Both the position numbers and the translations under genes were made by a program. Source: Cytophagales bacterium (GTDB taxonomy: Bacteria > Bacteroidota > Bacteroidia > Cytophagales > Thermoflexibacteraceae). From it: a DNA stretch of 64,000 nucleotides. The notes beneath the pieces were generated by a model. The model was not told the DNA's origin. It ran no database searches and worked only from the letters and a program-made list of their open reading frames with translations. Location: the NCBI GenBank assembly GCA_013299115.1, contig JAAFKA010000014.1, positions 1 through 64,000 on the forward strand, written 5' to 3'. Shown piece after piece: positions 2,892-47,302 of this stretch. Positions within the stretch are counted from its first letter, which is position 1. Each line of letters opens with the position of its first letter.

Positions 2892-3827
2892 ATGGATTTT
2901 GGCAAATTAACTTCCATAGAGGGCATTCAGTTTGCCCTACCTGCGGCCCACCCACGCACCACGCACGTATTGGCACAGGGTAAAAAACAACCTTTACAAG
3001 TTTTTGTAGGCTGTCCTGTTTGGGCTTGCAAAGAGTGGCAGGGGCATCTGTACCCCCAAAACACACCCGAAAAGCAGTTTTTGCAGCACTACACCCGCCA
3101 ATTTAACACCATAGAACTCAACACGACCCACTACCGAACTCCTGACGACCTCACTATTCAACGCTGGTACAAAGAAGCTGGCAATGGTTTTAAGTTTTGC
3201 CCCAAATTGTTGCAAGCCATAACCCACGAACACCAATTAACAGGCAACACAGCCGACCAACTTACGACCAATTTTTTAACGCAAGTGGCTGGTTTACAAG
3301 ACAAATTGGGTTTAGTTTTTATGCAGTTGCCTCCTTATTTTTCGCCTTCGGAGGTTTCCAAATTGCAAAGTTTTTTGGAAAAGCATTTTCAGTTGCCATC
3401 GCAAGGCAGACAGCCCCTTCCTTTTGCCATAGAGTTTCGCCATGAAGGTTGGTTTCGCCAATCGCAAGCATTTGAAAAAGTTTGTCAATTATTGGAAACC
3501 TACCAAATAGCCACCGTCTTGTGTGATGTGGCGGGCAGACGTGACGTGCTGCACCAACGACTCACAACGCCTGATTTGGTGCTGCGGTTTGTGGGCAACG
3601 GACTGCACCCAACCGACTATTCTCGTACAGATGAATGGATACAACAACTCAAAAAATGGGTTGCCGAAGGGCTGCAAAATGCCTATTTGTTTATTCACGA
3701 ACCCGACAACACCAAAGCCCCCGAAATGGCTGCTTATTGGCTCACGCAACTCAACCAACATTTGGGTCTAAACCTGAAAATGCCTTACTTTTATGGAAGC
3801 AAAAAAGGTGTGGATACGCTGTTTTAA
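2892..3827 (+). CDS. DUF72 (YecE-like) family protein
   Basis: 311 aa. The FNTIELNTTHYRTP motif and its length are typical of DUF72. Confidence 0.7.
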   Translation: MDFGKLTSIEGIQFALPAAHPRTTHVLAQGKKQPLQVFVGCPVWACKEWQGHLYPQNTPEKQFLQHYTRQFNTIELNTTHYRTPDDLTIQRWYKEAGNGFKFCPKLLQAITHEHQLTGNTADQLTTNFLTQVAGLQDKLGLVFMQLPPYFSPSEVSKLQSFLEKHFQLPSQGRQPLPFAIEFRHEGWFRQSQAFEKVCQLLETYQIATVLCDVAGRRDVLHQRLTTPDLVLRFVGNGLHPTDYSRTDEWIQQLKKWVAEGLQNAYLFIHEPDNTKAPEMAAYWLTQLNQHLGLNLKMPYFYGSKKGVDTLF

Positions 3828-3844
3828 GATTTACCACAAATTGT

Positions 3845-3922
3845 GTAGTGTGGACTTCAGTCCACACATAATGAATAATGTTTATTACTCAGTTAAAATG
3901 TGTGGACTGAAGTCCACACTAC
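3845..3922. repeat. Hairpin-pair element, copy 1
   Basis: Two inverted 24-bp copies of gtagtgtggacttcagtccacaca flank a 31-bp spacer. Each copy is itself a perfect 8-bp-stem hairpin (gtgtggac-ttca-gtccacac). The element lies between convergent genes. The same 24-bp terminal units recur at 61007-61123. Confidence 0.85.
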
Positions 3923-3927
3923 ATATC

Positions 3928-4407
3928 TTACCCAAAAACCTCCTGCTCAAAATACAATAAAATATGTTCTTTCAGCACTTTTTCTTGATTTACCAAATCT
4001 AAATAAGGCAATTTTTTGGTAGGTTTCCAATGCACCCAACCCTCTTGGTCTTTGCCTTCGGGTTCATAAAACTCCGAAAGACTTAGCACCCGACAAATAG
4101 CCCAGTGCATGAGGTCTTGTTTTTCCTCCTTGCTAAAATTTCGCTGTCCCTGCCCCAGTTCTTGTACCCCTATCAGAAACAGCACGCCATTCAGGTCGGG
4201 CTGCTTGCCAAAAATTCCCTCCAAACGAACTAACAACTGCTGCCAAGCTATGGCTACCTCATCGTCTGCAGCTAAGTGCGAAGACAAATTAATGCCTATT
4301 CCTCCATTGAGTTCGAAGGGTCGCAAGGTAGCTTGCAATTTGGGTTTGGACTGCGAGTCGGGCTGCATAGCATATATTTCTGGATTTTTCTCTGGTTTCA
4401 TATTCAC
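3928..4407 (-). CDS. hypothetical protein (159 aa)
   Basis: Long ORF with no family recognised. Confidence 0.4.
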   Translation of the reverse strand: MNMKPEKNPEIYAMQPDSQSKPKLQATLRPFELNGGIGINLSSHLAADDEVAIAWQQLLVRLEGIFGKQPDLNGVLFLIGVQELGQGQRNFSKEEKQDLMHWAICRVLSLSEFYEPEGKDQEGWVHWKPTKKLPYLDLVNQEKVLKEHILLYFEQEVFG

Positions 4408-4409
4408 AA

Positions 4410-4990
4410 ATTTCGGTTATTCACAAGACTATTACTATTGTTATTATTTTTTATTTTATTTTTTTAAAAAAGAAAAAAGAATTTTTTAGTAATACATAAT
4501 AATAGAGGGGTGAATAAGTCTAATATCTTTTTTGGCAAAGGTAGTTATTCAACCTTTATTCAACAAAAAAATTAAGTTATTCACATTTACTCAATAATTC
4601 TTTTTTGGAAGTTCATCGCAATTTATTATACTATTTTTATAAACAACTTATTGATTATCAATAAAATAAAAATCAAATACTTGCTATTTTTTGATTATAT
4701 TACCTACCAAAACGCAAGACTTATTCACAAGGTTTGAATAAGTCTTGCGTTTTTCGAAAAACACTTGATTTTGGTGTGAATAACTAAGGTACAAGCATTG
4801 AATAAATCGGGATAAGGTATAGGTTTATTCACAACATCCGAAAAGTGATTTAATTTTTCACAAAAGAGTAAAATTTATTCACAACTATTCACTTTTATTC
4901 ACTCGATAATCACAATTTATTCACAACTTATTCAAACAATTTCTTAGAAAAAATATATCTTTGCAAAATTTTATATTCTTTGCACCTAAA
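4410..4990. promoter_or_regulatory. DnaA-box cluster plus AT-rich unwinding-like tract (candidate oriC or a DnaA-regulated region)
   Basis: At least seven perfect TTATTCACA (TTATNCACA consensus) motifs in both orientations at about 4417, 4578, 4721, 4778, 4825, 4876 and 4917, plus about eight one-mismatch copies. An A/T-only run lies at 4440-4500. A 16-bp-arm palindrome, acgcaagacttattca...tgaataagtcttgcgt, sits at 4712-4752. Flanking genes are divergent. Confidence 0.5.
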
Positions 4991-4999
4991 ATACCAATC

Positions 5000-5093
5000 A
5001 TGTTAAAACAAGTATTTCAATTCTTTATTTTTTGCTCACTTTGTTTGGGCTTGTATGCCTGTGATATACCTATTTTGTTAATCTTTTTATAAC
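5000..5093 (+). pseudogene. Orphan 5' fragment of the lipoprotein gene (signal peptide only), duplicating the start of 8216..9874
   Basis: Positions 5000-5063 are nearly identical to 8216-8279 (atgttaaaa..ttgtttgggcttgtatgcctgtg, encoding MLK..FQFFIFCSLCLGLYAC). The reading frame stops after about 30 codons. Confidence 0.6.
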
Positions 5094-5107
5094 TCACAAA
5101 TTGAATT

Positions 5108-8100
5108 ATGAAACTATTTATCTTGTGTTTTTATTTTCTATTATTTGGCAACTTTTTGGCAGTTGCTCAAAAAATGCAGTCTGATACCACAGCAATTAAT
5201 GGTTTGTTGGTAAAGGCAAATTTCTTTTTTAAAGAAAAGAAATATGATAGTGCAGCTTTTTATTACCAAATAGCAAATCCGATGCTTGCTGATTTGGGTA
5301 ACAAAAAAAATTGGATAGACAAACAAATTTTTTTGGGGCTTTGCTACCTTAATGCCAATCAATGGGAGAAAGCAAGACTGTTTTTTGAAAAAAATTTGCA
5401 ACAAAGTATTGCCAGTTTGGGAGAGGACAATGAATTAACGGCAAAAAATTATTATTATCTTGGCAATAGTTATTGGAAATTGCAAGACACCAAAAACACA
5501 CTTCTCTATTATGAAAAATCCTTAGCTATTAGAGAAAAAGTATTAGGGCTTTGGCATGATGATGTGGCTTTGAGTTATCAAAACTTGGGGGTTGTTTATC
5601 GGAATATGGCAAATTATGAATATGCTATTAAATTTTATTTGAAAGCATTGGCAATACGAGAAAAAACGCAGGGAAGTAAATCGGCTGCTGTGGCTGCCAT
5701 TTACAATAACATAGGCTTGGTTTACAAAGATTGGTCGTCTTTTGAAGAAGCTATTTTGTATTATAACAAGTCTTTGCATATTAAAAAACAGCTTTATGGA
5801 GAAATGCACGTGGAAGTAGCAGGAACTTACAACAATATTGCAGGTATTTATTATCACCGCCAAGATTATGAAAACAGTTTGTTATTTCATACGAAAAGTT
5901 TGCAAATAAGAGAAAAAATATTGCCTCTGCACGACATAGAAATTGGGGCTTCTCTTGAAAATATTGGGCAGGTTTATAGAGCAATGGGCAAGATTAATAA
6001 CTTTTTTGAGGCTCAACACAAGGCTTTGTGGATTACACAAAAAAAATTAGGTTTGGCACATAGATACAATGCTGATGCGTATTTTAATTTAAGTGACGGA
6101 CATTTAGCAAAAAATCAGATAGATAGTGCAAAAATATATGCAGACAAAGCACTGCAAATTTATACAAAACTGTACACCAATAGGCATTATTTTATTGCAG
6201 CAGTTTATTATCAAAAAAGTTTGATAGCCCAAAAAGAACAAAATATTAGTCAGGCACTTGATTTTTGTCAGCAATCTTTGGTAGAAAATATGCCTTATTT
6301 TGATGGTGGTTCTCCCGATAAACACCCAAGGGCAGCAGGTTATGAGGTAAAAATTATGCGGATAAAAGATTTTCAAGAGGCTATGATACTAAAAGGAAAT
6401 CTATTGCTCACGCAATATCAAGCTACCAAAGACGAACAATATTTGTACATTGGTTTTCGACATTACCTTGTTTTCGACAGCATTGCACAAAGGTTATTGC
6501 CAAATTTTACGAATGAAAACGAAAAATTGTACTTTAATCGCAACATGGCAGAGGCATATAAGGGTGCAGTAGCCACTTGTTTTGTTTTGTCCGCAATTCG
6601 TCACAAAAACTTTTATGCAGAAAAAGGCTTTTATTTCTCTGAAAAAAGCAAAAGTGCAGTGCTAAGTGCTGCCTTAGCTAACACAAAAGCTAAAAAATAC
6701 GCACAAATTCCCGACAGTTTGATACAAAAAGAAAGAATTTTGAATAGTTTGATGGCAAAAACAGATGAAAAAATACTCATTGAGCAAATTGCAGCCAAAG
6801 ATGCAGATAAAATAGACTCCTTACACAATGAATTTTTTGAACTCAAAAAATCTCATAATGAATTGATTGCATCTTTTGAAAAAAATTATCCAGCTTATTT
6901 TAACGCCAAATATGATGTAACAACGGCAAGTATAGCAGAAATAAGTCGTAGTTTGGACAAAAATACAGCCTTGATTAGCTACACAATAGCCGATACTTGC
7001 CTCTACGTATTCACAATTACCAAAAATAATTCTCAATTTGCAAGAGTAACCAAATCACCTTATTTTGATACACAAATAAAAACTTTGCTCAATGCAATTT
7101 ACTACCAAGTCGGCAGTTTGTATGTAAAAAGTGCCTACATACTCCAACAGCAATTAATGCCCACCAATTTGCCAAACAGAATAAAAAATATTATTTTTAT
7201 TACTGAAGGTTCACTCTTAAAATTACCATTTGAAGCCTTGCTAAGTAAACCATTTACAAAAAAAATTGCTTCACTTGACTATACAAAATTACCTTATTTG
7301 GTCAAAGGTTTTGCAATTTCTTATCATTATTCAGCCAATTTATTCTTTCAAAATCTGCAAAGCAAAACAGCCAATCCTTATAAAGAAAGTTATGTAGCTT
7401 TTGCACCCATTTTTACAGAGGAAAGTGAAACAAATTTTCTTACCAAAGGTTGCGAAAGGGCTTTTTATGCCAACGATGAGCTATATGCAAAAGACAGCTT
7501 GAACAAAGCAGATTTTTTGAAAGACTTAGCACCAACAGTTTTAGCGGAGATAAAAAATGCTAACAAAGAAACAAGTCGGGCATTTACTCGAAGTGGAAAA
7601 TTTATTGCAGCCATACCAAAAACCAAAGACGAAGTAGAAAATATTAGCAAATTGCACAAGGATAAAAACCTTTTTTCTAAATATTACCTATTCAAAGATG
7701 CAAAAGAGGAAGTTATCAAGTCGGGTGAGTTAAAAAATTACACCTATATTCATTTTGCCACACATGGTTTTGTGAACGAAAGCCTGCCTGAATTATCAGG
7801 CTTGTTGCTTGCCCAAGACAGTCTAAGCAAAGAAGATGGTGTATTGTATGTGGGTGAAATTTACAATTTAGATATTTCACAAGCCGAATTAGTAACCCTT
7901 TCTGCCTGCGAAACAGGCTTAGGCAAAATAACTTCTGGCGAAGGTGTATTAGGGATTTCAAGGGCATTTTTGTATGCAGGAGCAAAAAATCTTGTTGTCA
8001 GTTTATGGAAAGTTGCAGATAGTTCGGCATCTGAACTGATGTTAGCATTTTATAACAACCTGCTAAATGACAAAGAAAAAAAGAAAAACAAGAGTTTGCA

Positions 8101-8182
8101 AGATGCCAAATTGCTTATTTTGAAAAATAAAACCTTCTCAAAACCTTATTATTGGTCACCTTTTATTTTGATAGGAAAGTAA
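5108..8182 (+). CDS. TPR-repeat protein with a C-terminal CHAT (caspase-like) protease domain and an N-terminal signal peptide
   Basis: 1024 aa. Multiple TPR motifs (YYxxAL/IxE-type repeats). The C-terminal part carries His/Cys dyad motifs, HFATHG ... LSACETG, typical of CHAT. Confidence 0.75.
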   Translation: MKLFILCFYFLLFGNFLAVAQKMQSDTTAINGLLVKANFFFKEKKYDSAAFYYQIANPMLADLGNKKNWIDKQIFLGLCYLNANQWEKARLFFEKNLQQSIASLGEDNELTAKNYYYLGNSYWKLQDTKNTLLYYEKSLAIREKVLGLWHDDVALSYQNLGVVYRNMANYEYAIKFYLKALAIREKTQGSKSAAVAAIYNNIGLVYKDWSSFEEAILYYNKSLHIKKQLYGEMHVEVAGTYNNIAGIYYHRQDYENSLLFHTKSLQIREKILPLHDIEIGASLENIGQVYRAMGKINNFFEAQHKALWITQKKLGLAHRYNADAYFNLSDGHLAKNQIDSAKIYADKALQIYTKLYTNRHYFIAAVYYQKSLIAQKEQNISQALDFCQQSLVENMPYFDGGSPDKHPRAAGYEVKIMRIKDFQEAMILKGNLLLTQYQATKDEQYLYIGFRHYLVFDSIAQRLLPNFTNENEKLYFNRNMAEAYKGAVATCFVLSAIRHKNFYAEKGFYFSEKSKSAVLSAALANTKAKKYAQIPDSLIQKERILNSLMAKTDEKILIEQIAAKDADKIDSLHNEFFELKKSHNELIASFEKNYPAYFNAKYDVTTASIAEISRSLDKNTALISYTIADTCLYVFTITKNNSQFARVTKSPYFDTQIKTLLNAIYYQVGSLYVKSAYILQQQLMPTNLPNRIKNIIFITEGSLLKLPFEALLSKPFTKKIASLDYTKLPYLVKGFAISYHYSANLFFQNLQSKTANPYKESYVAFAPIFTEESETNFLTKGCERAFYANDELYAKDSLNKADFLKDLAPTVLAEIKNANKETSRAFTRSGKFIAAIPKTKDEVENISKLHKDKNLFSKYYLFKDAKEEVIKSGELKNYTYIHFATHGFVNESLPELSGLLLAQDSLSKEDGVLYVGEIYNLDISQAELVTLSACETGLGKITSGEGVLGISRAFLYAGAKNLVVSLWKVADSSASELMLAFYNNLLNDKEKKKNKSLQDAKLLILKNKTFSKPYYWSPFILIGK

Positions 8183-8215
8183 GGACTATCAATTTAGAAA
8201 ATTATATCCCCAACC

Positions 8216-9874
8216 ATGTTAAAAAAACTATTTCAATTCTTTATTTTTTGCTCACTTTGTTTGGGCTTGTATGCCTGTGCCAACCAAGCAGCAGGAGGTC
8301 CCGCAGGTGGATTAAAAGACATTCGCAAGCCACGTATTCGGTTTTCTTCGCCCAAAAATCAGGCTTTGTATGTAAGGGGCAACCAAATAATCATACAATT
8401 TGACGAGGCAGTGAAGTTAAAAAATATCAAAAGCAATTTGCGAATCATACCCAATACGGACAATGACTATGACTATGTGCAGAAAAAAAACAAATTGACC
8501 TTAACTTTCAAAAAAGTTTTTGCTTCTAACACTACCTATGTTTTGGTTTTTGATGACGTAATAGAAGACGTAAACGAGAGCAACAAAGCTACCAATATGC
8601 GGTTGGCTTTCAGCACAGGAGGGCAGATAGATTCGTTTCGGGTCAGCGGCGTGGTGCGTGATTTGCTTACCAACAAACCTGAACAAGAGGCTACCGTCAT
8701 GTTGTATGATGCCTTAGATACCTTTAAGGTCGAAAAACACAAACCTCTCTACTATGCCAAAACAGACACCATTGGCAGGTACTCCATCAGCAACATCAGA
8801 GAAGGCAGCTATTTGATTTATGCTTTGAAAGAGGACAAAAAGAAAAATTTGGTTTATGATGACTACAAAGAAAAGATTGGTTTTCAGGCAGATACCTTGC
8901 AAATAAATGCACAAACCCTACCTTTTGCCGACCTCAAAACCTTGTCTTACGATTTCAGACCTTTTAAAACTACGACCAAAAGACCACGCAAACAATACTA
9001 CGAGGTAAAGGCAAACAAGGCAATTAAAGAATTTAGCGTACAGTTTGCCGACAGCACTTGGCAACAAAAAATTTTGGCTGCCCCCGAAAACGAAACTTTG
9101 CGGTTTTATAATTTGAGTGAAAACCAAGCTACGGATACTTTGGTGGCTTACCTTACCCTCAAAGATTCGGTTTTGGCAGTTGCATACGATACAATCAAAG
9201 TAAAATTTGACGACATCAAGGAAAAAGACAAAGAAAAAAAGAAAACCAAATTGGAAATTAAGGTTACTCCGCAAAGCAACTCGAAGTTTATAGCCAAAGA
9301 ACAATTTACTGTTCGTTTTACTTCCAATTTGCCTTTGGTTTCTTTTGTGGCAGATAGTTTTTTGTTGGCAATAGACAAAGATACCATTCCGCTAAAAACC
9401 GAAGATTTTAAATTAGCTCCCAACGGACTTAGTTTAGAAGTGCTAAAACCTCTACAATTTAAGGAAAATATGAAATTGGTTTACAAGAAAAAGGCATTTG
9501 TGGCAGTGGAAAAAGATACCTCCGCAGCAGGAGAAGTGAGTTATGGTATCAAAAAAGAGGAGGATTTTGCTACGCTGACGGGCATAGTAAAAGTGAAGGC
9601 AGAAAACTTTATTTTGCAACTCATAGGCAATGGCAATGCAGTGGAGCAAGAGCAAAAAAATGCGAGGGATTTTGTGTTCAAATATGTAAACCCAGGTAAA
9701 AAATCTTTTAGAGTGTTAATAGACACCAACAACAACGGCAAATGGGACGCAGGTGATGCCAAAAAAGGAATACCTGCCGAAAAAATTTACTTTTACGACA
9801 CCCCCGATTTGGCTAAAACTGCCCCGAATTGGTTGTATGAAGACATTATAGTGGAGGTAAAAGAGGAGTTTTAA
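8216..9874 (+). CDS. hypothetical lipoprotein (552 aa)
   Basis: Signal peptide with lipobox LGLYAC. No family recognised. Confidence 0.55.
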   Translation: MLKKLFQFFIFCSLCLGLYACANQAAGGPAGGLKDIRKPRIRFSSPKNQALYVRGNQIIIQFDEAVKLKNIKSNLRIIPNTDNDYDYVQKKNKLTLTFKKVFASNTTYVLVFDDVIEDVNESNKATNMRLAFSTGGQIDSFRVSGVVRDLLTNKPEQEATVMLYDALDTFKVEKHKPLYYAKTDTIGRYSISNIREGSYLIYALKEDKKKNLVYDDYKEKIGFQADTLQINAQTLPFADLKTLSYDFRPFKTTTKRPRKQYYEVKANKAIKEFSVQFADSTWQQKILAAPENETLRFYNLSENQATDTLVAYLTLKDSVLAVAYDTIKVKFDDIKEKDKEKKKTKLEIKVTPQSNSKFIAKEQFTVRFTSNLPLVSFVADSFLLAIDKDTIPLKTEDFKLAPNGLSLEVLKPLQFKENMKLVYKKKAFVAVEKDTSAAGEVSYGIKKEEDFATLTGIVKVKAENFILQLIGNGNAVEQEQKNARDFVFKYVNPGKKSFRVLIDTNNNGKWDAGDAKKGIPAEKIYFYDTPDLAKTAPNWLYEDIIVEVKEEF

Positions 9875-9880
9875 AGTTGT

Positions 9881-9932
9881 TTACTTTTTCCATAGTGTAG
9901 GGGTTGCAACCCCTACACTATGGAAAAAGTAA
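9881..9932. terminator. Bidirectional terminator-like perfect hairpin (24-bp stem, tgca loop)
   Basis: ttactttttccatagtgtaggggt-tgca-acccctacactatggaaaaagtaa lies between convergent genes, with a T-run on one side and an A-run on the other. Confidence 0.7.
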
Positions 9933-9937
9933 TAGTT

Positions 9938-10558
9938 TTACTTTACCTCAATCAAAATATAAAAATCTGTCTTTGTTTTTTCTATATCCTGAACTTTTAT
10001 GCGGTGTGTTTCATTGATTTGCCAAGTTTCTTGCATATTGTCTAATTGCATATTGCCAAATTTTAGTTGATAATAATCCACCAATTCAGCATTAAGTGCC
10101 TCATAATCAGCTACTTCTTTCACTCTTATCTCTGCGTTAATTGCATTAACTTTGTCGTCTTTAAACAAATAAGTAATTTTGGCAGTTTCGCCTTCGCCCA
10201 ACGAGGCAGTGTAGTTGAGTTCAGTAGCAGTTTCTTTGGTTAGTTTGCCTAAGTCTGTTTCCAATTTTTTCACTTCGGCTTTGCTCATGCCTATTGTTAC
10301 ACCGCGAAACAGTCCGTCTAAATTGGTAATTAAAAGTTGGAAGTCTTCACTGTAAGCAGCAAAATGTTTAAGAGCAGAAAAAGAAGCCTCCATGTCGTCG
10401 CCTTCCACCTTCACTTTTGCAGTATCCAAATCCCCTGTTACTGTAATTGCAAGGCTGTCCGTAGTTACCGAATTGGTAGTTGCTTTTTCATCATTGCAAG
10501 CTGCAAGACCTAATAAAAATAAACTGACCAAAAATATTTGAGTTGCTTTCATTACCAA
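9938..10558 (-). CDS. hypothetical lipoprotein (206 aa)
   Basis: Signal peptide plus lipobox LGLAAC. Confidence 0.5.
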   Translation of the reverse strand: MVMKATQIFLVSLFLLGLAACNDEKATTNSVTTDSLAITVTGDLDTAKVKVEGDDMEASFSALKHFAAYSEDFQLLITNLDGLFRGVTIGMSKAEVKKLETDLGKLTKETATELNYTASLGEGETAKITYLFKDDKVNAINAEIRVKEVADYEALNAELVDYYQLKFGNMQLDNMQETWQINETHRIKVQDIEKTKTDFYILIEVK

Positions 10559-15164: not shown

Positions 15165-15284
15165 ATAGAGGTTATTACGATTTGTACCGTACTCTTTGGC
15201 GGGGGTTGCCTCCAACTGCAGGGTCAATTAGTTGAAAATCAAGAAGTTATTTTTCTATACAAAAATTATCGTAATAACCTCTAC
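15165..15284. mobile_element. MITE-like element, copy 1 (~118 bp with 16-bp terminal inverted repeats tagaggttattacgat)
   Basis: About 95% identical to 18024-18137. The termini are perfect inverted repeats. It sits directly after a stop codon between convergent genes. Confidence 0.6.
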
Positions 15285-18023: not shown

Positions 18024-18137
18024 GGTTATTACGATTTGTACTGTACCCTTTGGCGGGGGTTGCCTCCAACTGCAGGGTCAATTAGTTGAAAATCAAGAAG
18101 TTATTTTTCTATACAAAAATTATCGTAATAACCTCTA
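18024..18137. mobile_element. MITE-like element, copy 2
   Basis: Same element as 15165-15284, again directly downstream of a stop codon between convergent genes. Confidence 0.6.
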
Positions 18138-32219: not shown

Positions 32220-33226
32220 AAGACCAACTCAATTTGCTAAATAAACTAACCGCAAAAAAAATCTACAATGCGTGGCAGGTGCTGTCGAGTTATTACCAAT
32301 CGCAGCACCTCCACCAAAACCACCACAGGGGTTTGCCTATCAGCCTTGCCATTGAGCCTACTACGTCTTGCAACCTTCGCTGTCCCGAATGTCCCAGTGG
32401 GCTGCGGTCTTTTACCCGACCAACAGGAATGTTGCCCGAAAATCTGTTTAAGCAAGTGATAGATGAGTTGCAAAGCACCTTGCTTTACCTCACATTTTAT
32501 TTTCAGGGAGAACCTTATTTGCACCCAAAATTTACAGAATTGGTGCAGTATGCAGCCCAAAGAGGAATTTATACCTCTACCTCTACCAATGCTCACTACC
32601 TCACAGACGACAATGCCCGCAAAACCATAGAGTCGGGCTTAGACAGGTTGATTATTTCCATCGATGGCACCACACAGGAAACTTACAAGCAATACAGAGT
32701 CGGCGGCAACTTGGAAAAAGTAATAGAAGGCACAAAAAATATTTTGCGTTGGAAAAAAGAACTCAAAAGCAAAACACCGCATACAATTTTCCAATTTTTG
32801 GTAGTGAAACCCAACGAACACCAAATTCCCGAAGTGTATCAATTAGCCAAAACATTAGGAATAGACGAAGTAAAGCTAAAAACAGCCCAAATTTACGACT
32901 TCGAGCAAGGCTCGCCGTTGATACCCACCATAGACCGTTATTCTCGATACCGCAAAAACGGAAACGGCACGTACAGCATCAAAAACAGTTTAGAAAATGG
33001 CTGTTGGCGTATGTGGCAATCTTGCGTCATCACTTGGAATGGCAGCGTAGTGCCTTGCTGTTTCGATAAAGATGCCCACTATGTTTTGGGAGATTTGCAA
33101 CAGCAAAGTTTCAAAAATATATGGCAAAGTGCTGCCTATCAAGAGTTTAGGCAGCAACTCCTTATCTCCCGTTCACAAATAGAAATGTGTAAAAATTGCA
33201 CCGAAGGAACTAAGGTTTTTGCGTAG
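32216..33226 (+). CDS. radical SAM protein with a C-terminal SPASM/twitch-like Cys cluster
   Basis: CNLRCPECP (CxxxCxxC) motif. C-terminal CWRMWQSCVITWNGSVVPCCFDKDAHYVLGDL ... CKNCTEG. The start overlaps the ABC gene stop by 4 bp. Confidence 0.75.
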   Translation: MKDQLNLLNKLTAKKIYNAWQVLSSYYQSQHLHQNHHRGLPISLAIEPTTSCNLRCPECPSGLRSFTRPTGMLPENLFKQVIDELQSTLLYLTFYFQGEPYLHPKFTELVQYAAQRGIYTSTSTNAHYLTDDNARKTIESGLDRLIISIDGTTQETYKQYRVGGNLEKVIEGTKNILRWKKELKSKTPHTIFQFLVVKPNEHQIPEVYQLAKTLGIDEVKLKTAQIYDFEQGSPLIPTIDRYSRYRKNGNGTYSIKNSLENGCWRMWQSCVITWNGSVVPCCFDKDAHYVLGDLQQQSFKNIWQSAAYQEFRQQLLISRSQIEMCKNCTEGTKVFA

Positions 33227-34277
33227 TAGTTAGCATCTCCATACATTTGTCAAATACCTCTTGGCTACTAATACCAAAATCTCTGACCTCACTTTCTTTG
33301 TTCCAAGTAGGATTTTTTAGGTGAAAGTGGTCTGGAAAATAGCCCGCAGGCGACCAAACCGAAGGTTCACTGGGACCAATAAGGCACAAAGCTGGTGTTT
33401 TGGTGGCACAAGAAAGGTGGTTGATAGCCCCTTCGTTGCAGATTAACAAATTGATTTTTTCTAAAAAAGCAGCCAATTCACGCAATGTGGGACTTTGAGG
33501 AGATAACAACAATCGAGGATGTGCTATTTTTTGCATCACTTGTTTCAAATGACTCCGTTCGGAGGGAGCAGAAAAAAGTATGATATAACTTGCGGTTTGC
33601 TCAAGAATTTTGCTAATCAATTCGATAAAACCTGCCTCGTGCCATTTTTTTTGTTGGTCTTTGCAGCTTATCTCCATACCTATTACTTTTTTTCCTTCTA
33701 ATTGGTTGGTTTGCCAAAAATCGTGTGCCATTACCTTTCCTTTTGCCGAAACCTTAATTGTGAGTTCGTACTTATTTGTATAAATGCCCAAAGGCTGCAT
33801 CAAAAGCAGATTTCTTACGGCACTGTATAGATTGGGGGCAGGTGGTGCCTCAAGATTAAAAAGGAAAGACCATTTAGAATTGCCCCAAGTTACTCGATAC
33901 TTTGCATTAGAAAAAAGTACAAATAAAGCAGATTCTGTTCCGTTTTGTTGGTCTATAATCAAATCGTATTGTTCTTTTCTTACTTGCAGCCAAGCACGCA
34001 ACTGAAAAAACTTGCCAATGCCTCTTTCATAAGGAATATTGATAATTTTGTCTATCAGTGGATGTTCTTCTATAACCGTATGAAAAGGTGTATTGCAAAG
34101 GTAGTGAATTTTAGCAGCAGGATACTTTTCTTTTAATGCAGCCAAATAAGAGGTAGCCAATAAGACATCTCCAAATGGACGAAATTGGAGAACAAGTATT
34201 TTGTGAAGTTGCATAGTATAACGAGTTTTTGTAAACGAAAACAACAAAATTGGTTGTAAAACAGTAATAAAATGCAA
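33210..34277 (-). CDS. glycosyltransferase family 9 (heptosyltransferase-like)
   Basis: 355 aa with a GT9-like architecture. Confidence 0.65.
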   Translation of the reverse strand: MHFITVLQPILLFSFTKTRYTMQLHKILVLQFRPFGDVLLATSYLAALKEKYPAAKIHYLCNTPFHTVIEEHPLIDKIINIPYERGIGKFFQLRAWLQVRKEQYDLIIDQQNGTESALFVLFSNAKYRVTWGNSKWSFLFNLEAPPAPNLYSAVRNLLLMQPLGIYTNKYELTIKVSAKGKVMAHDFWQTNQLEGKKVIGMEISCKDQQKKWHEAGFIELISKILEQTASYIILFSAPSERSHLKQVMQKIAHPRLLLSPQSPTLRELAAFLEKINLLICNEGAINHLSCATKTPALCLIGPSEPSVWSPAGYFPDHFHLKNPTWNKESEVRDFGISSQEVFDKCMEMLTTTQKP

Positions 34278-34464: not shown

Positions 34465-35106
34465 ATGACAACCACAACTACTTTATACACCAAAATTGAG
34501 TATGACAAAATTTGTGAGTTTGCGGGTAGTCATTTTGAGTATGACGATGGGCTAATTGTTTGGAAATACAACGGACAAGTCATTGAAGACGAAATTCTAA
34601 CCAAACTCCTAAACCAAGAAGACATACAAATTTATTCAGAAATGGCAACTCACAAACACAACAAAATTATACGCAACCTACATAGTAGATTGTTTAGAGG
34701 TTTAGATGAAAAACTTTTTTCAATCTATACCAACACTGTACATATTGCGATTATTATTAGTGGCAAAGAAAAAATCCGTATTTCTGATGTTACAGTAGTG
34801 CCTAAAAAAGAAATTTTGACACCTAATCAAGAAGTTACTAATCCTCTCATTATTTTCGAAATCGTATCGCCAAGTTCTGTGCAGACAGATTATATAGACA
34901 AATTGCGTGAATATAAGGCAATAGAAAGTTTACAAGAATATATTATTGTAGAGCAAGATAAAAATTGTTTGGTGCATTACCAAAGAATTAGTGCTACGGA
35001 GTGGACAGAGGATAAGATAGAAACTTATGAAGATTATTTATATTTACCAACAGTTTCAATTAGATTAGCAATGCAAGAGATTTATGCAGATTGTGAGGGG
35101 CTGTAA
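34465..35106 (+). CDS. Uma2 family endonuclease (DUF820)
   Basis: PLIIFEIVSPSS...DKLREYKAIESLQEYIIVEQD matches the Uma2 core motif. Confidence 0.65.
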   Translation: MTTTTTLYTKIEYDKICEFAGSHFEYDDGLIVWKYNGQVIEDEILTKLLNQEDIQIYSEMATHKHNKIIRNLHSRLFRGLDEKLFSIYTNTVHIAIIISGKEKIRISDVTVVPKKEILTPNQEVTNPLIIFEIVSPSSVQTDYIDKLREYKAIESLQEYIIVEQDKNCLVHYQRISATEWTEDKIETYEDYLYLPTVSIRLAMQEIYADCEGL

Positions 35107-39640: not shown

Positions 39641-39934
39641 TTGCAAACTACTATTTCTCTCCATAATTTTAGTGTATTCTCTGATGCTACTAAATTCGTG
39701 CAAATCGGAGTTGCGGACACAGGCGTAGGCATGAGTGCCGAACAGATGGGCAAACTGTTCAAACAAGCCACTTCTTTTACAACCTACGGCACCAGTGGCG
39801 AAAAAGGTACAGGCTTAGGCTTGCTATTCTGCCAAGAAATGGCGGAGAAAAACGGAGGCAAAATTTGGGTGGAAAGTGAGCAAGGCAGAGGCACTACGTT
39901 TTGGTTTACGGTGGCAATAAAGTTAGCAAGTTAG
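39641..39934 (+). pseudogene. Orphan duplicate of the 3' end (HATPase_c G1/G2 boxes) of the TPR histidine-kinase gene
   Basis: 39677-39934 is about 98% identical at the nucleotide level to 43703-43960. It encodes only DTGVGM...GTGLGL...FWFTV, without HisKA or N-box. Confidence 0.75.
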
Positions 39935-39971: not shown

Positions 39972-40805
39972 CTACACTTCATCGGGATTTATCCCCATAG
40001 CACGCAATTTTTCTGCTAATTTGTCTGCACGTTGCTTTTCTGTTTCTGCACGTTGCTTTTCAGACTCTGCACGTTGTTTTTCAGACTCTGCACGTTGCTT
40101 TTCGGCTTCTGTTTTCTGCTTTTCTGTTGCCAATTTTTTGTCTTTTATTGCAAGTTGCTGATTTTTTTCTGCCACCGCCTCCACACCCGTAGGCAATAGC
40201 ACGCCGTTTTGGTCTTGCCAACGCACCCATTCTTCTTTCATGCCCTCATATTCTCCCTGCCAAGCCACAGGTGTTATGCCTATTCGGTCTAAAAAATTAC
40301 TTTCTTTGAGGTAATAAGCCCCTGCTCGCAATTCATAAACCATTATCAACTGCTTTTGCAAAAATTGCAAAGGGTCTATAATGATGTAGTAAGGTACACC
40401 AGCCTTTGCATAGACATCAAATTTTTTGCCTTTTTCATTGCCTACTGTATTGGACACTACTTCCACCACCACTTCGGGAGATTTGCCCAACTCCCATATC
40501 ATATAGACCCGATGGCGTTTTTCCCACACATCAGGCGGATAGGAAATGTCCATGCTTAGGAGCATATCAGGCACGATGGCGGGCAAGTGCAAGCCATAAT
40601 ATAGCCCTACGTTGGTCGAGGCTACAAATTGCCTTTCGCCAAAGGGCGAGGCTGTCTGCAAAGTATCAATCAACAGGCGTTGCTGTTTTTCAGAATAAAT
40701 ATTGTCCACAGGCGTATCGTCTTCGGTTAGCAAATGCTCCACATTGGGTGGAGTGATTACAAAATCCTCCACAACCTCCGTTGTTGTTGTCTGGCGGGTT
40801 TTCAT
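39972..40805 (-). CDS. Uma2 family endonuclease with a C-terminal (EKQRAES)n coiled-coil repeat
   Basis: VVEVVSNT...GVPYYIIIDP core, with a tandem 7-aa repeat tail. Confidence 0.65.
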   Translation of the reverse strand: MKTRQTTTTEVVEDFVITPPNVEHLLTEDDTPVDNIYSEKQQRLLIDTLQTASPFGERQFVASTNVGLYYGLHLPAIVPDMLLSMDISYPPDVWEKRHRVYMIWELGKSPEVVVEVVSNTVGNEKGKKFDVYAKAGVPYYIIIDPLQFLQKQLIMVYELRAGAYYLKESNFLDRIGITPVAWQGEYEGMKEEWVRWQDQNGVLLPTGVEAVAEKNQQLAIKDKKLATEKQKTEAEKQRAESEKQRAESEKQRAETEKQRADKLAEKLRAMGINPDEV

Positions 40806-41029: not shown

Positions 41030-43963
41030 TTGAAAAAGCTAATTCTTGTATTTTTTTTGCTTTTTGCAGCCACAAGTAACTTTTGCTTTGCCCAAAACAA
41101 AAAAGTAATAGACAGCCTTACACAAGTCTATCACAACGCCAAGCACGACACAATAAAAGTATTGGCTCTTACTTCTATTGCCTACGAGTACAGAAGAAAT
41201 AAGCCAGATACTTGTATTTCCATTGCTGAAAAAGCCCTGCAAATAAGTGAAAAAATACAGTATCGCAAAGGGCAAGGCAATAGTTATCATCACATAGGTT
41301 TAGGCTATTATAATAAGAGTGCTTACCCTTTGGCATTGGAATATTACCAAAAAAGCTTGAAAATACGAGAAGAAATAGGGGATAAACAAGGTATAGGAAG
41401 TAGTTTCAATGCCATAGGGCTTATTTACAATAATCAAGGCAATTACCCTTTGGCTTTGGAATATCACCAAAAAAGTCTGAAAATAGAGAGAGAAATAGGC
41501 AATAAGCAAGGCATAGCCATTAGTTTGAATAACATAGGCAATATTTATGATAATCAAGGCAATTACCCTTTGGCTTTGGAATATCACCAACAAAGTCTGA
41601 AAATAGCGGAAGAAATAGGCAATAAACAAGGTATAGCCAGTAGTTTGAATAACATAGGCAATATTTATGATAGTCAAGGCAATTATCCATTGGCTTTGGA
41701 ATATTACCAAAAAGGTATGAAAATAGAGGGAGAAATAGGCAATAAAAAAGGCATAGCCAGTAGTTTGCATAACATAGGGATTATTTACAAAAATCAAGGC
41801 AATTATCCTTTGGCTTTGGAATATTACCAAAAAAGTATGAAAATAGAGGGAGAAATAGGCAATAAAAAAGGCATAGCCAGTAGTTTGCATAACATAGGGA
41901 TTATTTACAAAAATCAAGGCAATTATCCTTTGGCATTAGAATATTTCCAAAAAAGCCTAAAAATAAAGGAAGAAATAGGGGATAAACAAGGCATAGCCAA
42001 TAGTTTGAATAACATAGGACTTATTTACGATGATCAAGGTAATTATCCTTTGGCATTGGAATATTACCAAAAAAGCCTAAAAATAAAGAAAGAAATAGGG
42101 AATAAACAAGGCATATCCATTAGTTTGAGTAACATAGGGAGTATTTACAAAAATCAAGGCAATTATCCTTTGGCATTAGAATATTATCAAAAAAGCCTGA
42201 AAATAGAAGAAGCAATAGGAGATAAAAAAGGCATAGCTGGTAGTTTGAGTAACATAGGCAATATTTATGATAGTCAAGGCAATTACACTTTGGCTTTGGA
42301 ATATTACCAAAAAAGCCTGAAAATAACAGAAGAAATAGGCGATAAATTGGGAACTACCTATTCCCTGTGTGGAATTGCCCAAGTAGCCCAAAAACAAAAA
42401 GACTATGATAAAAGCATAGATTATGCACAAAAAAGCCTAAAAATTGCCCAAGAAATAAAAGCCTCCGCAGAAATCAAAAGTGCAAGCGAAGTCCTTTACA
42501 ATAGCTATAAACTCAAAGGCGACTATGTGAAAGCCCTTGAATACCACGAACTATTTAAGGCAACGAATGATAGTATTTTCAATATAGACAAAGCAAAGAA
42601 AATAGCTAATTTGGAAGCAACTGCGGAGATAGAAAAAAAGTCAAAAGAAATAGAGATTTTGAATAAAAACAAGGAATTATCCCAAAAAGAAAAAGAGGTG
42701 TTGGAAAAAGATTTGAAACTCCAAAGTACAGAGGCAGAAAGGCAGCGAAATGCTAATTTGGTGCTTGAAAAACAAGCAGAAGCAGATAAATTATTCAACC
42801 TTGCTCGGCAAGAAAAAGACAAACGAAAAGCAGACAGCCTGAATAACCTTGCCCAGTATCACCAACTGCAAGCTGATAACCTAAAAGCAAAAGAAAAACA
42901 GCTGCAAGCCGAAAATAAAGCCCAAAAAATAGAGTCTATCAAAGAAAAAGAAGCAAAGGAATTTCAACAATATATTACCTATTTGGTATTGGTGGGGCTT
43001 TTTTCTGTTGTAGTTTTTGCTTATTTTATTTTTATTTCTCGCAAAAAAGTTCAAAAAGCATACGAACAATTAGAAGTTTCTAAAATCAAAATTCAAGAAA
43101 CCAATCAGCATTTGACATTGGCAAACGAGGAGATTTCGCAACAGAAAGAGGAAATTGTGCAACAAGCCGACAACCTCCAAGCTGTAAATCAGACCAAAGA
43201 CAAGCTTTTTGCCATCATAGGGCATGACCTCCGCAACCCTGTGGCTTCGCTAAAAGGAATGTTGGACTTGGTGGTTTCGCAAGACATTAGCCAAGAGGAA
43301 TTTGCAGAATATGCACCCAAACTTGCCGAAAACGTAGAAAATATGCACTTTACGCTAAACAATTTGCTGTCGTGGGCAAACAGCCAACTGCAAGGCATAG
43401 CCAACAAACCCCAAAATATTAACCTCCACGAATTGGCACAAGAAAACTGCAATCTACTCAAAGAAATAGCCGCTCAAAAAGGTATTAATTTGGCGAATGA
43501 ACTACCAAACAACTTGCAAGGCTACGCAGACCAGCAGCAGATTAACCTCATTTTCAGAAACTTAATTGGCAATGCCCTAAAATTTACGCCCGCAGGTGGA
43601 AGTGTGAAAGTGGTTTTAGAAAATAGAACTAACATTTCTCAAAGAAATGTTAGTTCTGAACAATTTAGTAGCATCAGAGATGACATCTTTCAAAAAGATG
43701 TCATCTCTGATGCTACTAAATTCGTGCAAATTGGAATTGCGGACACAGGCGTAGGCATGAGTGCCGAACAGATGGGCAAACTGTTCAAACAAGCCACTTC
43801 TTTTACGACCTACGGCACCAGTGGCGAAAAAGGTACAGGCTTAGGCTTGCTACTCTGCCAAGAAATGGCGGAGAAAAACGGAGGCAAAATTTGGGTGGAA
43901 AGTGAGCAAGGCAGAGGCACTACGTTTTGGTTTACGGTGGGAGTAAGGTTAGTAAATTTTTAG
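41030..43963 (+). CDS. TPR-repeat sensor histidine kinase (signal peptide, ~10 TPR units, TM helix, coiled coil, HisKA, HATPase_c)
   Basis: H-box IIGHDLRNP, N-box NLIGNALKFT, G1 DTGVGM, G2 GTGLGL. Confidence 0.85.
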   Translation: MKKLILVFFLLFAATSNFCFAQNKKVIDSLTQVYHNAKHDTIKVLALTSIAYEYRRNKPDTCISIAEKALQISEKIQYRKGQGNSYHHIGLGYYNKSAYPLALEYYQKSLKIREEIGDKQGIGSSFNAIGLIYNNQGNYPLALEYHQKSLKIEREIGNKQGIAISLNNIGNIYDNQGNYPLALEYHQQSLKIAEEIGNKQGIASSLNNIGNIYDSQGNYPLALEYYQKGMKIEGEIGNKKGIASSLHNIGIIYKNQGNYPLALEYYQKSMKIEGEIGNKKGIASSLHNIGIIYKNQGNYPLALEYFQKSLKIKEEIGDKQGIANSLNNIGLIYDDQGNYPLALEYYQKSLKIKKEIGNKQGISISLSNIGSIYKNQGNYPLALEYYQKSLKIEEAIGDKKGIAGSLSNIGNIYDSQGNYTLALEYYQKSLKITEEIGDKLGTTYSLCGIAQVAQKQKDYDKSIDYAQKSLKIAQEIKASAEIKSASEVLYNSYKLKGDYVKALEYHELFKATNDSIFNIDKAKKIANLEATAEIEKKSKEIEILNKNKELSQKEKEVLEKDLKLQSTEAERQRNANLVLEKQAEADKLFNLARQEKDKRKADSLNNLAQYHQLQADNLKAKEKQLQAENKAQKIESIKEKEAKEFQQYITYLVLVGLFSVVVFAYFIFISRKKVQKAYEQLEVSKIKIQETNQHLTLANEEISQQKEEIVQQADNLQAVNQTKDKLFAIIGHDLRNPVASLKGMLDLVVSQDISQEEFAEYAPKLAENVENMHFTLNNLLSWANSQLQGIANKPQNINLHELAQENCNLLKEIAAQKGINLANELPNNLQGYADQQQINLIFRNLIGNALKFTPAGGSVKVVLENRTNISQRNVSSEQFSSIRDDIFQKDVISDATKFVQIGIADTGVGMSAEQMGKLFKQATSFTTYGTSGEKGTGLGLLLCQEMAEKNGGKIWVESEQGRGTTFWFTVGVRLVNF
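41300..42360. repeat. Near-identical 120-bp tandem repeats inside the CDS (TPR units)
   Basis: For example, 41701-41820 and 41821-41940 are essentially identical. Many units share more than 85% identity. Confidence 0.9.
43624..43717. repeat. Two consecutive palindromes embedded in-frame in the HK ATP-lid region
   Basis: agaactaacatttct-caaag-aaatgttagttct (43624-43656) and the perfect 24-bp-arm palindrome tagtagcatcagagatgacatcttt-caaa-aagatgtcatctctgatgctacta (43665-43717). Together they encode about 30 extra residues between the N-box and G1. Confidence 0.85.
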
Positions 43964-44242: not shown

Positions 44243-44300
44243 GGAAGTCCAAGCATTGCTTTTGTGGCACTACCAATTTGCGAAGCCTATTTTACCACCC

Positions 44301-47206: not shown

Positions 47207-47240
47207 ATGCCAGAACTAACATTTTTCAAAGAAATGTTAG
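47207..47240. repeat. Palindromic repeat family member (agaactaacattt-ttcaaa-gaaatgttagttct)
   Basis: Lies between convergent polA and murE. Related to the 43624 and 55785 copies. Confidence 0.8.
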
Positions 47241-47302
47241 TTCTTCTATAACTTTTTAAAGCCTATTTTTATAAACCCTTGTAGATTTCCTGTACCTAAT
47301 TT

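Follow-up and report, generated by a model that had tools for sequence, protein, structure and literature searches.

A TPR-CHAT gene between two copies of the 5′ end of a lipoprotein gene in a Cytophagales bacterium: a probable insertion with a 70-bp target duplication

The TPR-CHAT/lipoprotein locus

We analysed the first 64,000 nucleotides (nt) of the forward strand of contig JAAFKA010000014.1 (assembly GCA_013299115.1), from a Cytophagales bacterium of the Thermoflexibacteraceae (Bacteroidota); this whole stretch is called the window. In it, a gene for a protein composed of tetratricopeptide repeats (TPR) and a C-terminal caspase-like CHAT domain stands between two nearly identical copies of the start of a lipoprotein gene. 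The locus is composed of the following features:

4956–4963, + strand: Bacteroidetes-type −7 promoter motif TATCTTTG (TAnnTTTG), a motif match 37 nt upstream of the ATG of repeat copy 1
4994–5063, + strand: repeat copy 1, consisting of a 6-nt 5′ leader, the ATG and the lipoprotein signal peptide up to its Cys, plus 1 nt
5000–5092, + strand: orphan open reading frame (ORF) of 30 codons, with the full signal peptide and lipobox Cys, nine unrelated residues and a TAA stop
5064–8209, + strand: intervening, probably inserted segment of 3146 nt, with a 44-nt leader, the CHAT ORF and a 27-nt trailer
5108–8182, + strand: TPR-CHAT gene, 1024 aa, with a signal-peptide-like N-terminus, a TPR array and a C-terminal CHAT caspase-like domain
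8210–8279, + strand: repeat copy 2, from which the intact lipoprotein gene takes its start codon and signal peptide
8216–9874, + strand: resident lipoprotein gene, 552 aa, with Big_5 Ig-like and CarboxypepD_reg-like domains
8280–8286, + strand: CCAACCA microhomology, directly 3′ of copy 2 and within native coding sequence
9881–9932, no strand: perfect palindrome of 26 + 26 nt, a terminator-like hairpin (20-bp stem) after the lipoprotein gene

The initial annotation of this DNA had pointed to near-identical copies at 5000–5063 and 8216–8279, both beginning at an ATG. The copies are borne out and prove slightly longer: 70 nt (4994–5063 and 8210–8279), identical at 67 of the 70 positions, with all three mismatches within the first 19 nt and the final 51 nt forming an exact block, compared with a longest exact repeat of 14–17 nt in 20 shuffles of the window. 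The 70 nt begin, in either copy, 6 nt 5′ of the ATG and end 1 nt past the Cys codon. The edges are sharp: when both copies are extended into their flanks, identity falls to random exactly at either boundary of the 70 nt.

Short-read assemblies can mis-join at repeats, and an arrangement of this kind might in principle be an artefact of assembly; we regard this as extremely unlikely here. A contig from the Logan assemblies (L080, 5 runs, independent of the window) is 100% identical to positions 5034–8258, a match that takes in the two inner junctions along with the copy-2-specific variants, and because the independent contig reproduces them, the inner junctions are not an artefact of a single assembly. 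The ends of the Logan contig are the breaks expected from a graph with k = 31 at the 51-nt repeat, and the 70-nt repeat is below typical read length.

The upstream copy opens the 30-codon orphan and the downstream copy the intact 552-aa lipoprotein (ORFs 5000–5092 and 8216–9874), as had been described from the first. The product of the orphan ORF is MLKQVFQFFIFCSLCLGLYAC followed by DIPILLIFL and the stop, which lies 15 nt 5′ of the CHAT ATG; the orphan and the CHAT gene share a frame, with two stops between them (TAA at 5090 and TGA at 5102) that preclude a fusion. The resident lipoprotein has a Big_5 match of 1e-12 and a lipobox reading ...LCLGLYAC followed by ANQ, and all close homologues retain the Cys that follows the signal peptide. 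Its full-length homologues, at 73%, 59% and 56% identity and lower, are spread across Cytophagales and Bacteroidota. In both the resident gene and the orphan ORF the signal peptide ends in the lipobox Cys, and lipidation is predicted for both products.

The intervening 3146 nt (GC content 0.33) hold the TPR-CHAT gene alone, in agreement with the initial annotation: ORF 5108–8182 is the one ORF, and none other exceeds 110 aa. Its Pfam matches are CHAT (PF12770; 4.5e-57 over residues 679–1024, with 194 bits vs a gathering cut-off of 24), TPR_12, TPR_10 and TPR_1. A putative catalytic His/Cys dyad, H886 and C934, is invariant in a MAFFT alignment of 10 sequences (the CHAT protein and nine homologues), and the N-terminus, MKLFILCFYFLLFGNFLAVAQ, is signal-peptide-like as judged by reading the sequence, from which secretion is predicted. 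The protein is a member of a large Bacteroidota family, the “CHAT domain-containing tetratricopeptide repeat proteins”. In searches of a database of 5.8 billion proteins, however, its best full-length homologues, beyond an identical sequence from the same genome, are 32–35% identical. The GC content at third codon positions (GC3) of the CHAT gene is 0.287, vs 0.421 for the lipoprotein gene and 0.36–0.48 for most genes of the window. With its deviant composition and no close homologue, the CHAT gene looks foreign.

On the + strand between 4300 and 10000, TAnnTTTG occurs at 4956 and at one internal site, 6048, only. No such motif separates the CHAT gene from the lipoprotein gene, and no terminator-like hairpin is found in the 33 nt from the CHAT stop to the lipoprotein start; a sigma-70 promoter scan gives counts at chance level, as expected for Bacteroidota. 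The motif at 4956 is likely the promoter of the whole unit, and we infer a single transcription unit that would run from the promoter at ~4956 through the orphan mini-ORF, the CHAT gene and the lipoprotein gene to the hairpin at 9881–9932.

Origin of the duplicated segment

The homologues of the CHAT protein reach at most 35% identity while the relatives of the lipoprotein reach 73%, so the relatives carry the lipoprotein without a CHAT orthologue. We read the surroundings of the lipoprotein gene in L079 and L135/L136 (both 73%), the P0006 contig (55%), L137–L139 (48%), L001 (56%) and L002 (37%). No CHAT gene stands upstream of the lipoprotein gene in any relative locus with readable upstream sequence, and the upstream neighbour in L079, L135/L136, the P0006 contig, L137/L138, L001 and L002 is a different, non-CHAT gene each time. 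The segment equivalent to −6 to +64 is single-copy in 8/8 relative loci with DNA. A scan of genome contigs for the lipoprotein gave a best identity of 56%, and the protein database returned its own genome plus relatives at no more than 73%; neither search turned up a conspecific genome. The comparison of orthologous loci proposed with the initial annotation thus finds no CHAT gene upstream and a single-copy 5′ segment; the same arrangement with unrelated flanks, which would have pointed to old synteny, was not found.

We believe that the locus is likely no working device but a scar, left when a foreign TPR-CHAT gene was inserted fairly recently by horizontal transfer, with no recombinase encoded by the element and with a 70-bp target duplication. 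That a CHAT gene was inserted within the 5′ end of a lipoprotein gene, as first suspected, is supported by the position of the promoter motif, the GC3, the homologues and the loci of relatives; in particular, a target duplication is supported because the promoter motif lies 5′ of copy 1 while the remainder of the gene follows copy 2. A foreign segment, apparently promoterless and carrying the TPR-CHAT gene alone, would have entered the lipoprotein gene just past the lipobox Cys codon without a recombinase of its own, and the target would have been duplicated over 70 bp (−6 to +64). The upstream copy would have stayed joined to the lipoprotein promoter, where it now opens the 30-codon orphan ORF, and the downstream copy would have restored the start codon and signal peptide, leaving the lipoprotein gene whole. 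On this view the orphan ORF is a scar, and annotating it as an independently derived gene fragment would be mistaken.

The sharp edges and the nucleotide-level identity bear on a different origin of copy 1, as the remnant of a paralogous lipoprotein gene, or of the likeness of the two copies, as the product of gene conversion. Signal peptides of paralogous lipoproteins can indeed resemble each other, and the lipobox of the orphan is intact. The identity here, however, is one of nucleotides and includes the 6 non-coding nt before the ATG and the 51-nt exact block, after which it ends abruptly; no lipoprotein-like sequence is found downstream of copy 1, and relatives hold a single copy. We therefore consider a paralogous origin very improbable.

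Similarly, the close spacing of the orphan stop and the CHAT ATG, 15 nt apart, would allow translational coupling, and the orphan ORF could be read as a leader peptide in a selected regulatory device. The repeats could equally be read as an on/off switch of the CHAT gene through deletion or amplification: the 51-nt exact repeats should permit precise loss or amplification of the cassette, and repeat-flanked restriction-modification units have been reported to amplify (PMC2853133). The arrangement is, however, conserved in no relative, and the 70-nt repeat with its leader has an RNA structure no stronger than that of shuffled sequences (z = +0.97). A device of this kind is in our judgement highly unlikely; it would moreover concern the consequences of the arrangement and is no substitute for its origin by insertion.

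The CHAT cargo and its neighbours give no integrase or transposase match (Pfam, NCBIfam, PHROGs and PADLOC), and no tyrosine or serine recombinase gene is present in 5064–8209 or in the flanking genes (2892–4407 and 8216–10558). The ends of the insert have no terminal inverted repeats (best ungapped match 27/60), and the window contains no tRNA gene and no Rfam family at gathering score. A DDE or other classical transposon was rejected on these grounds: terminal inverted repeats and a transposase are lacking, and a duplication of 70 nt is far beyond those made by transposases, which are typically <10 bp, with 19–26 bp reported for IS1630 (PMC2853133). We rate the target-site duplication of a classical transposon as improbable in the extreme, on a par with an assembly artefact. 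An integron gene cassette was rejected as well, with no inverted repeat at the cassette ends, an unstructured repeat and no integrase found.

Site-specific recombination is one listed source of flanking direct repeats (Furuta 2010, PMC2853133), and the 70-nt repeats might be attL and attR sites left by a degenerate integrative element, one that relied on a recombinase acting in trans and carried a replacement 5′ end for its target. The insert does have sharp-edged direct repeats on both sides, and its target gene is whole again. Against this stand the lack of an integrase or recombinase in or beside the insert, which led us to reject an integrase-dependent element, the make-up of the insert as a single ORF with merely 44 + 27 nt of flank, and the lack of a tRNA and of a structured or palindromic core. 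Two other repeat-bracketed cassettes of the window (see below) have unrelated repeat sequences, and a single site-specific recombinase is disfavoured because the repeat pairs elsewhere in the window have no boundary motif in common. An att-type origin would also not predict the microhomology that bounds the repeat. Altogether we find it improbable.

This microhomology is the heptamer CCAACCA, found at the start of copy 2 (8210–8216) and again, identical at 7/7 positions, directly after it (8280–8286); the start of copy 1 (4994–5000), CCAATCA, matches it at 6/7. CCAACCA occurs 11 times in the window, both strands counted, and at fixed spacing the background rate is ~2e-4 per position for a 7/7 match and ~2e-3 for a match of at least 6/7. 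The microhomology bounding the duplicated unit hints at illegitimate recombination, and is suggestive, not conclusive. Illegitimate recombination routes predict such a signature, which a fixed-stagger cut does not, and a microhomology-guided, illegitimate route is favoured over a fixed-stagger transposase cut because CCAACCA stands both at the start of the repeat and after copy 2.

The same heptamers could have acted earlier, by slipped mispairing between two CCAACCA, to give a 70-bp tandem duplication at whose copy junction the CHAT segment landed later. The arrangement [mh-S][mh-S]mh, with mh the microhomology and S the rest of the unit, is the classic signature of microhomology-mediated tandem duplication, and the duplication would be tolerable, with copy 2 retaining an intact start. 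Such an order, however, needs an independent insertion at one position among ~76 tolerated ones, and it leaves unexplained the two other cassettes of the same architecture, which lack such microhomology; we give it little weight.

If the insertion with target duplication was instead guided by the microhomology, it may have occurred by excision and re-integration. The segment would at first have been plainly inserted after the Cys codon; the neighbouring 70 nt would then have been captured by microhomology-mediated excision or duplication; and homologous recombination with an intact allele, that is, Campbell-type integration of a 3216-nt circle, would have given the structure seen today. A homology-facilitated illegitimate patch copied from the intact allele, or a replicative template switch, would be equivalent routes to the same product. 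We hold this microhomology-guided sub-route as a possibility that falls somewhat short of probable.

Several points weigh against the insertion as we have described it. The empty site is reconstructed and not seen, since the nearest relatives are at 73% identity and the upstream context differs in each genome, and the alignment of the upstream flank of copy 1 with the promoter region of the 73% relative is not significant (p = 0.12). The low GC3 of the CHAT gene may come in part from the composition of a repeat protein. Motif matches are the sole basis of the promoter and of the operon. The p for the microhomology is roughly 1e-3 to 1e-2 once the handful of inspected alignments is allowed for, and no boundary microhomology was found in the other repeat pairs of the window, including the cassette at 21 kb. 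The likeness in orientation of three such cases in the window is not statistically significant. Finally, for this class of insertion no pathway has been demonstrated, in the literature or here.

Comparison with known systems

Insertion with long target duplication came to light by genome comparison for restriction-modification genes of Helicobacter pylori (Nobusato et al. 2000, Gene 259:99) and subsequently in a number of phyla (Furuta, Abe and Kobayashi 2010, NAR, PMC2853133). The latter work looked for repeats >30 bp, an insert <20 kb that lacks mobility genes, and a related genome whose site is empty, and observed that the repeats often span the translation start or stop and so leave the target gene intact; double-strand breakage and amplification via the repeats were suggested, with no experimental evidence on mechanism (PMC2853133). 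The CHAT case resembles this class in being a gene unit of a few kb without mobility genes, bounded by target-derived direct repeats above 30 bp that span the translation start, and its repeat and insert lie within the published limits of length, size and gene content. In both, the length of the repeat varies by event (70, 132 and ~75–100 nt in the window). The cargo differs: restriction and modification genes in the published cases, where they served as a term of the screen and not of the mechanism, and here a TPR-CHAT gene and, in the other two cassettes, an ATPase pair and a HEPN/MNT-like pair. The published hosts are mostly proteobacteria, cyanobacteria and actinobacteria, whereas here the host is a member of the Cytophagales (Bacteroidota). 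The published cases were also validated by conspecific empty sites, whereas here the empty site is deduced from more distant loci, and a span of 25 kb contains three cases.

As a route of horizontal gene gain, insertion with long target duplication is documented but rarely studied, and its mechanism is not established. The window would extend the class to a new phylum and to cargo other than restriction-modification genes.

For the circle-plus-recombination route proposed above, the microcin H47 island of E. coli offers a precedent: it has extended direct repeats and no recombinase, and it excises as a circle, as shown experimentally, and re-integrates via RecA-independent host functions (Azpiroz and Lavina 2017, PMC5426353). 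The island is, however, 13 kb long and has imperfect repeats with four blocks of homology, whereas the CHAT case is known from sequence alone. Microhomology-mediated break-induced replication (MMBIR) and homology-facilitated illegitimate recombination make joints at a few nt of microhomology, and can yield foreign insertions plus local duplications (Hastings et al. 2009, PMC2621351); these are general models, by which this exact product is undemonstrated in bacteria, and within the window the microhomology is seen in the CHAT case only. A pathway in which a tandem duplication arises first and then recombines with a different allele (Lim et al. 2012, PMC3457768) is topologically equivalent to the routes that we propose.

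The CHAT protein itself is like Csx29, the TPR-CHAT protein of type III-E CRISPR systems, in combining TPR repeats with a CHAT caspase-like protease domain, and unlike it in having a signal-peptide-like N-terminus. Membership with Csx29 was rejected: there is no detectable sequence relation and no gRAMP/Cas7-11 among the scanned flanking genes. A repeat search across the window gave no CRISPR-type array, and the ORFs scanned, a subset of those in the window, include no cas or gRAMP gene. A sequence search of the PDB with the CHAT protein found kinesin-light-chain-like TPR chains only, and no chain that matches the CHAT part.

Integrase elements that enter the 5′ end of a gene and restore it, such as SXT/R391 in prfC, are large, encode their integrase and have a short core in common with the target. 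The CHAT insertion is like them in lying at the 5′ end of a gene that the element-proximal copy restores, and unlike them in that no integrase is found.

Other repeat-bracketed segments and surroundings of the locus

Direct repeats with kb spacing (at least 50 nt, at least 90% identity) number 5 in the 64-kb window vs 12 in 1.98 Mb of other Bacteroidota loci, where several of the 12 are closely spaced or resemble repetitive extragenic palindromic (REP) elements. The initial annotation had taken a second repeat-bracketed cassette at 21 kb as a sign of a recurrent mechanism. That cassette exists, and a third, older case of lower repeat identity can be added to it:

20947–24914, + strand: second case, an ATPase pair between 132-nt repeats (20947–21078 and 24783–24914; 130/132 identical)
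28073–29547, − strand: third case, an older HEPN/MNT-like pair between repeats at 28073–28145 and 29475–29547, 78% identical

Recurrence is thus supported by the cassettes at 21 kb and at 28–29.5 kb, and not by the remaining repeat pairs (15170/18024, 1–126/929–1054 and 39673/43699), which differ in kind or are cut by the window edge. The insertion type is seen about three times in the window, and the lowest-GC3 genes of the window sit in these three repeat-bracketed cassettes at the 5′ ends of resident genes.

In the second case the repeat carries a −7 motif, and the insert (3704 nt, GC3 0.22) is composed of a 205-aa ORF and a 979-aa KGGVGR-type AAA/Sll1717 P-loop ATPase (an NCBIfam match), for which PADLOC gives a match to PDC-M28B/C of the candidate system PDC-M28. 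Downstream of the insert, and oriented like it, is a gene resembling that for the major vault protein (MVP); the right boundary of the insert falls inside a GC-rich nested palindrome of 121 nt (24897–25017) in the 5′ untranslated region (UTR) of the MVP-like gene. The closest MVP locus (L098, 88% aa identity) shares that gene alone with the window, its neighbours being unrelated, and so gives no synteny for the cassette. The MVP-like gene (25038–27542, ORF called from 24858) encodes a bacterial homologue of the eukaryotic major vault protein (Pfam MVP_shoulder 2.3e-30, Vault_3 2.3e-9) and has 54 related metagenome loci, up to 88% identical. In locus L088, repeats flanking the MVP-like gene were considered as a target duplication and turned out to be a palindromic REP-like element.

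In the third case the repeats are ~73–100 nt long, alignable over ~100 nt with gaps. The two genes between them (28741–29121 and 29118–29459; GC3 0.19–0.21) were assigned as HEPN and nucleotidyltransferase by reading, with no hidden Markov model (HMM) search, and they lie upstream of a small resident gene (ATG at 28069) in the same orientation. Around three further low-GC3 genes (34465–35106, 33210–34277 and 9938–10558) the similarity of the flanks is not significant; the first of these, with GC3 0.27 and 213 aa, is Uma2-type endonuclease-like by eye.

Within 25 kb, three events would thus have occurred, each at the 5′ end of a resident gene and in that gene's orientation, with microhomology at one junction and another junction inside a palindrome. 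Such a genome could be a natural system for studying how genes without mobility functions enter chromosomes, borrow a promoter and spare the resident gene. One might go further and imagine in this genome an active, recurrent and recombinase-free capture, in which promoterless foreign conflict or defence genes (TPR-CHAT, the KGGVGR ATPase pair and the HEPN/MNT pair) are placed just behind resident promoters in the same orientation, with target duplications of ~70–130 nt that spare the resident gene, perhaps driven by the genome's own PD-(D/E)XK nucleases (the tandem Rpn-like genes at 1–1041, or those of Uma2 type) or by breakage at hairpins of the 5′ UTR. We regard such a process as doubtful.

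The remaining repeat pairs are of other kinds. The pair at 15170–15283 and 18024–18137 was rejected as a target duplication, being a 114-nt element that resembles a miniature inverted-repeat transposable element (MITE), with 14-bp terminal inverted repeats GAGGTTATTACGAT...ATCGTAATAACCTC. Its two copies (112/114 identical; folding z = −3.6 and −5.1 vs shuffles) bracket a 514-aa gene of no assigned family and an epimerase gene. The pair at 39673–39932 and 43699–43958 was rejected likewise: it is a duplicated 3′ fragment (HATPase_c) of a histidine-kinase gene, the 260-nt duplicate being ~97% identical to the 3′ end of the TPR histidine-kinase gene at 41030–43963. The orphan HATPase_c fragment follows a TPR gene with a partial SpoIIE match and adjoins a Uma2-family nuclease gene (39972–40805, − strand).

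The pair at 1–126 and 929–1054, which the window edge truncates, is part of tandem Rpn-like PD-(D/E)XK genes on the − strand. These genes (1–1054; Pfam PDDEXK_2, 2e-53) have an identical 126-nt 5′ end in common, and the ORF at 118–1041 contains a 12-nt tandem repeat, encoding repeated GKIE, at 214–321. Variable four-amino-acid repeats are among the features described for Rpn toxin/antitoxin defence genes (PMC10400941), and the GKIE repeats are reminiscent of them.

Directly upstream of the CHAT/lipoprotein locus, positions 4400–4936 form a candidate chromosomal replication origin. All 7 exact TTATTCACA sites in the window match the DnaA-box consensus TTATNCACA; they cluster together with 6 one-mismatch sites in this 540-nt intergenic region, where the GC content is 23–25% and the GC skew is negative on the left and positive on the right. 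A REP-like palindromic element, TGTAGTGTGGACTTCAGTCCACACA, is found nearby as an inverted pair at 3844–3923, and also at 60500–60534 and 61091–61125. Further along the window, a 33-nt palindrome, AGAACTAACATTTCTCAAAGAAATGTTAGTTCT, occurs twice (43625–43657 and 47212–47244), flanking the DNA polymerase I gene at 44256–47183; ~12 copies of a 78-nt coding tandem repeat lie at 56150–57220, inside the ORF at 56066–58132, and three 72-nt non-coding tandem repeats lie at the right end of the window (63376–63591).

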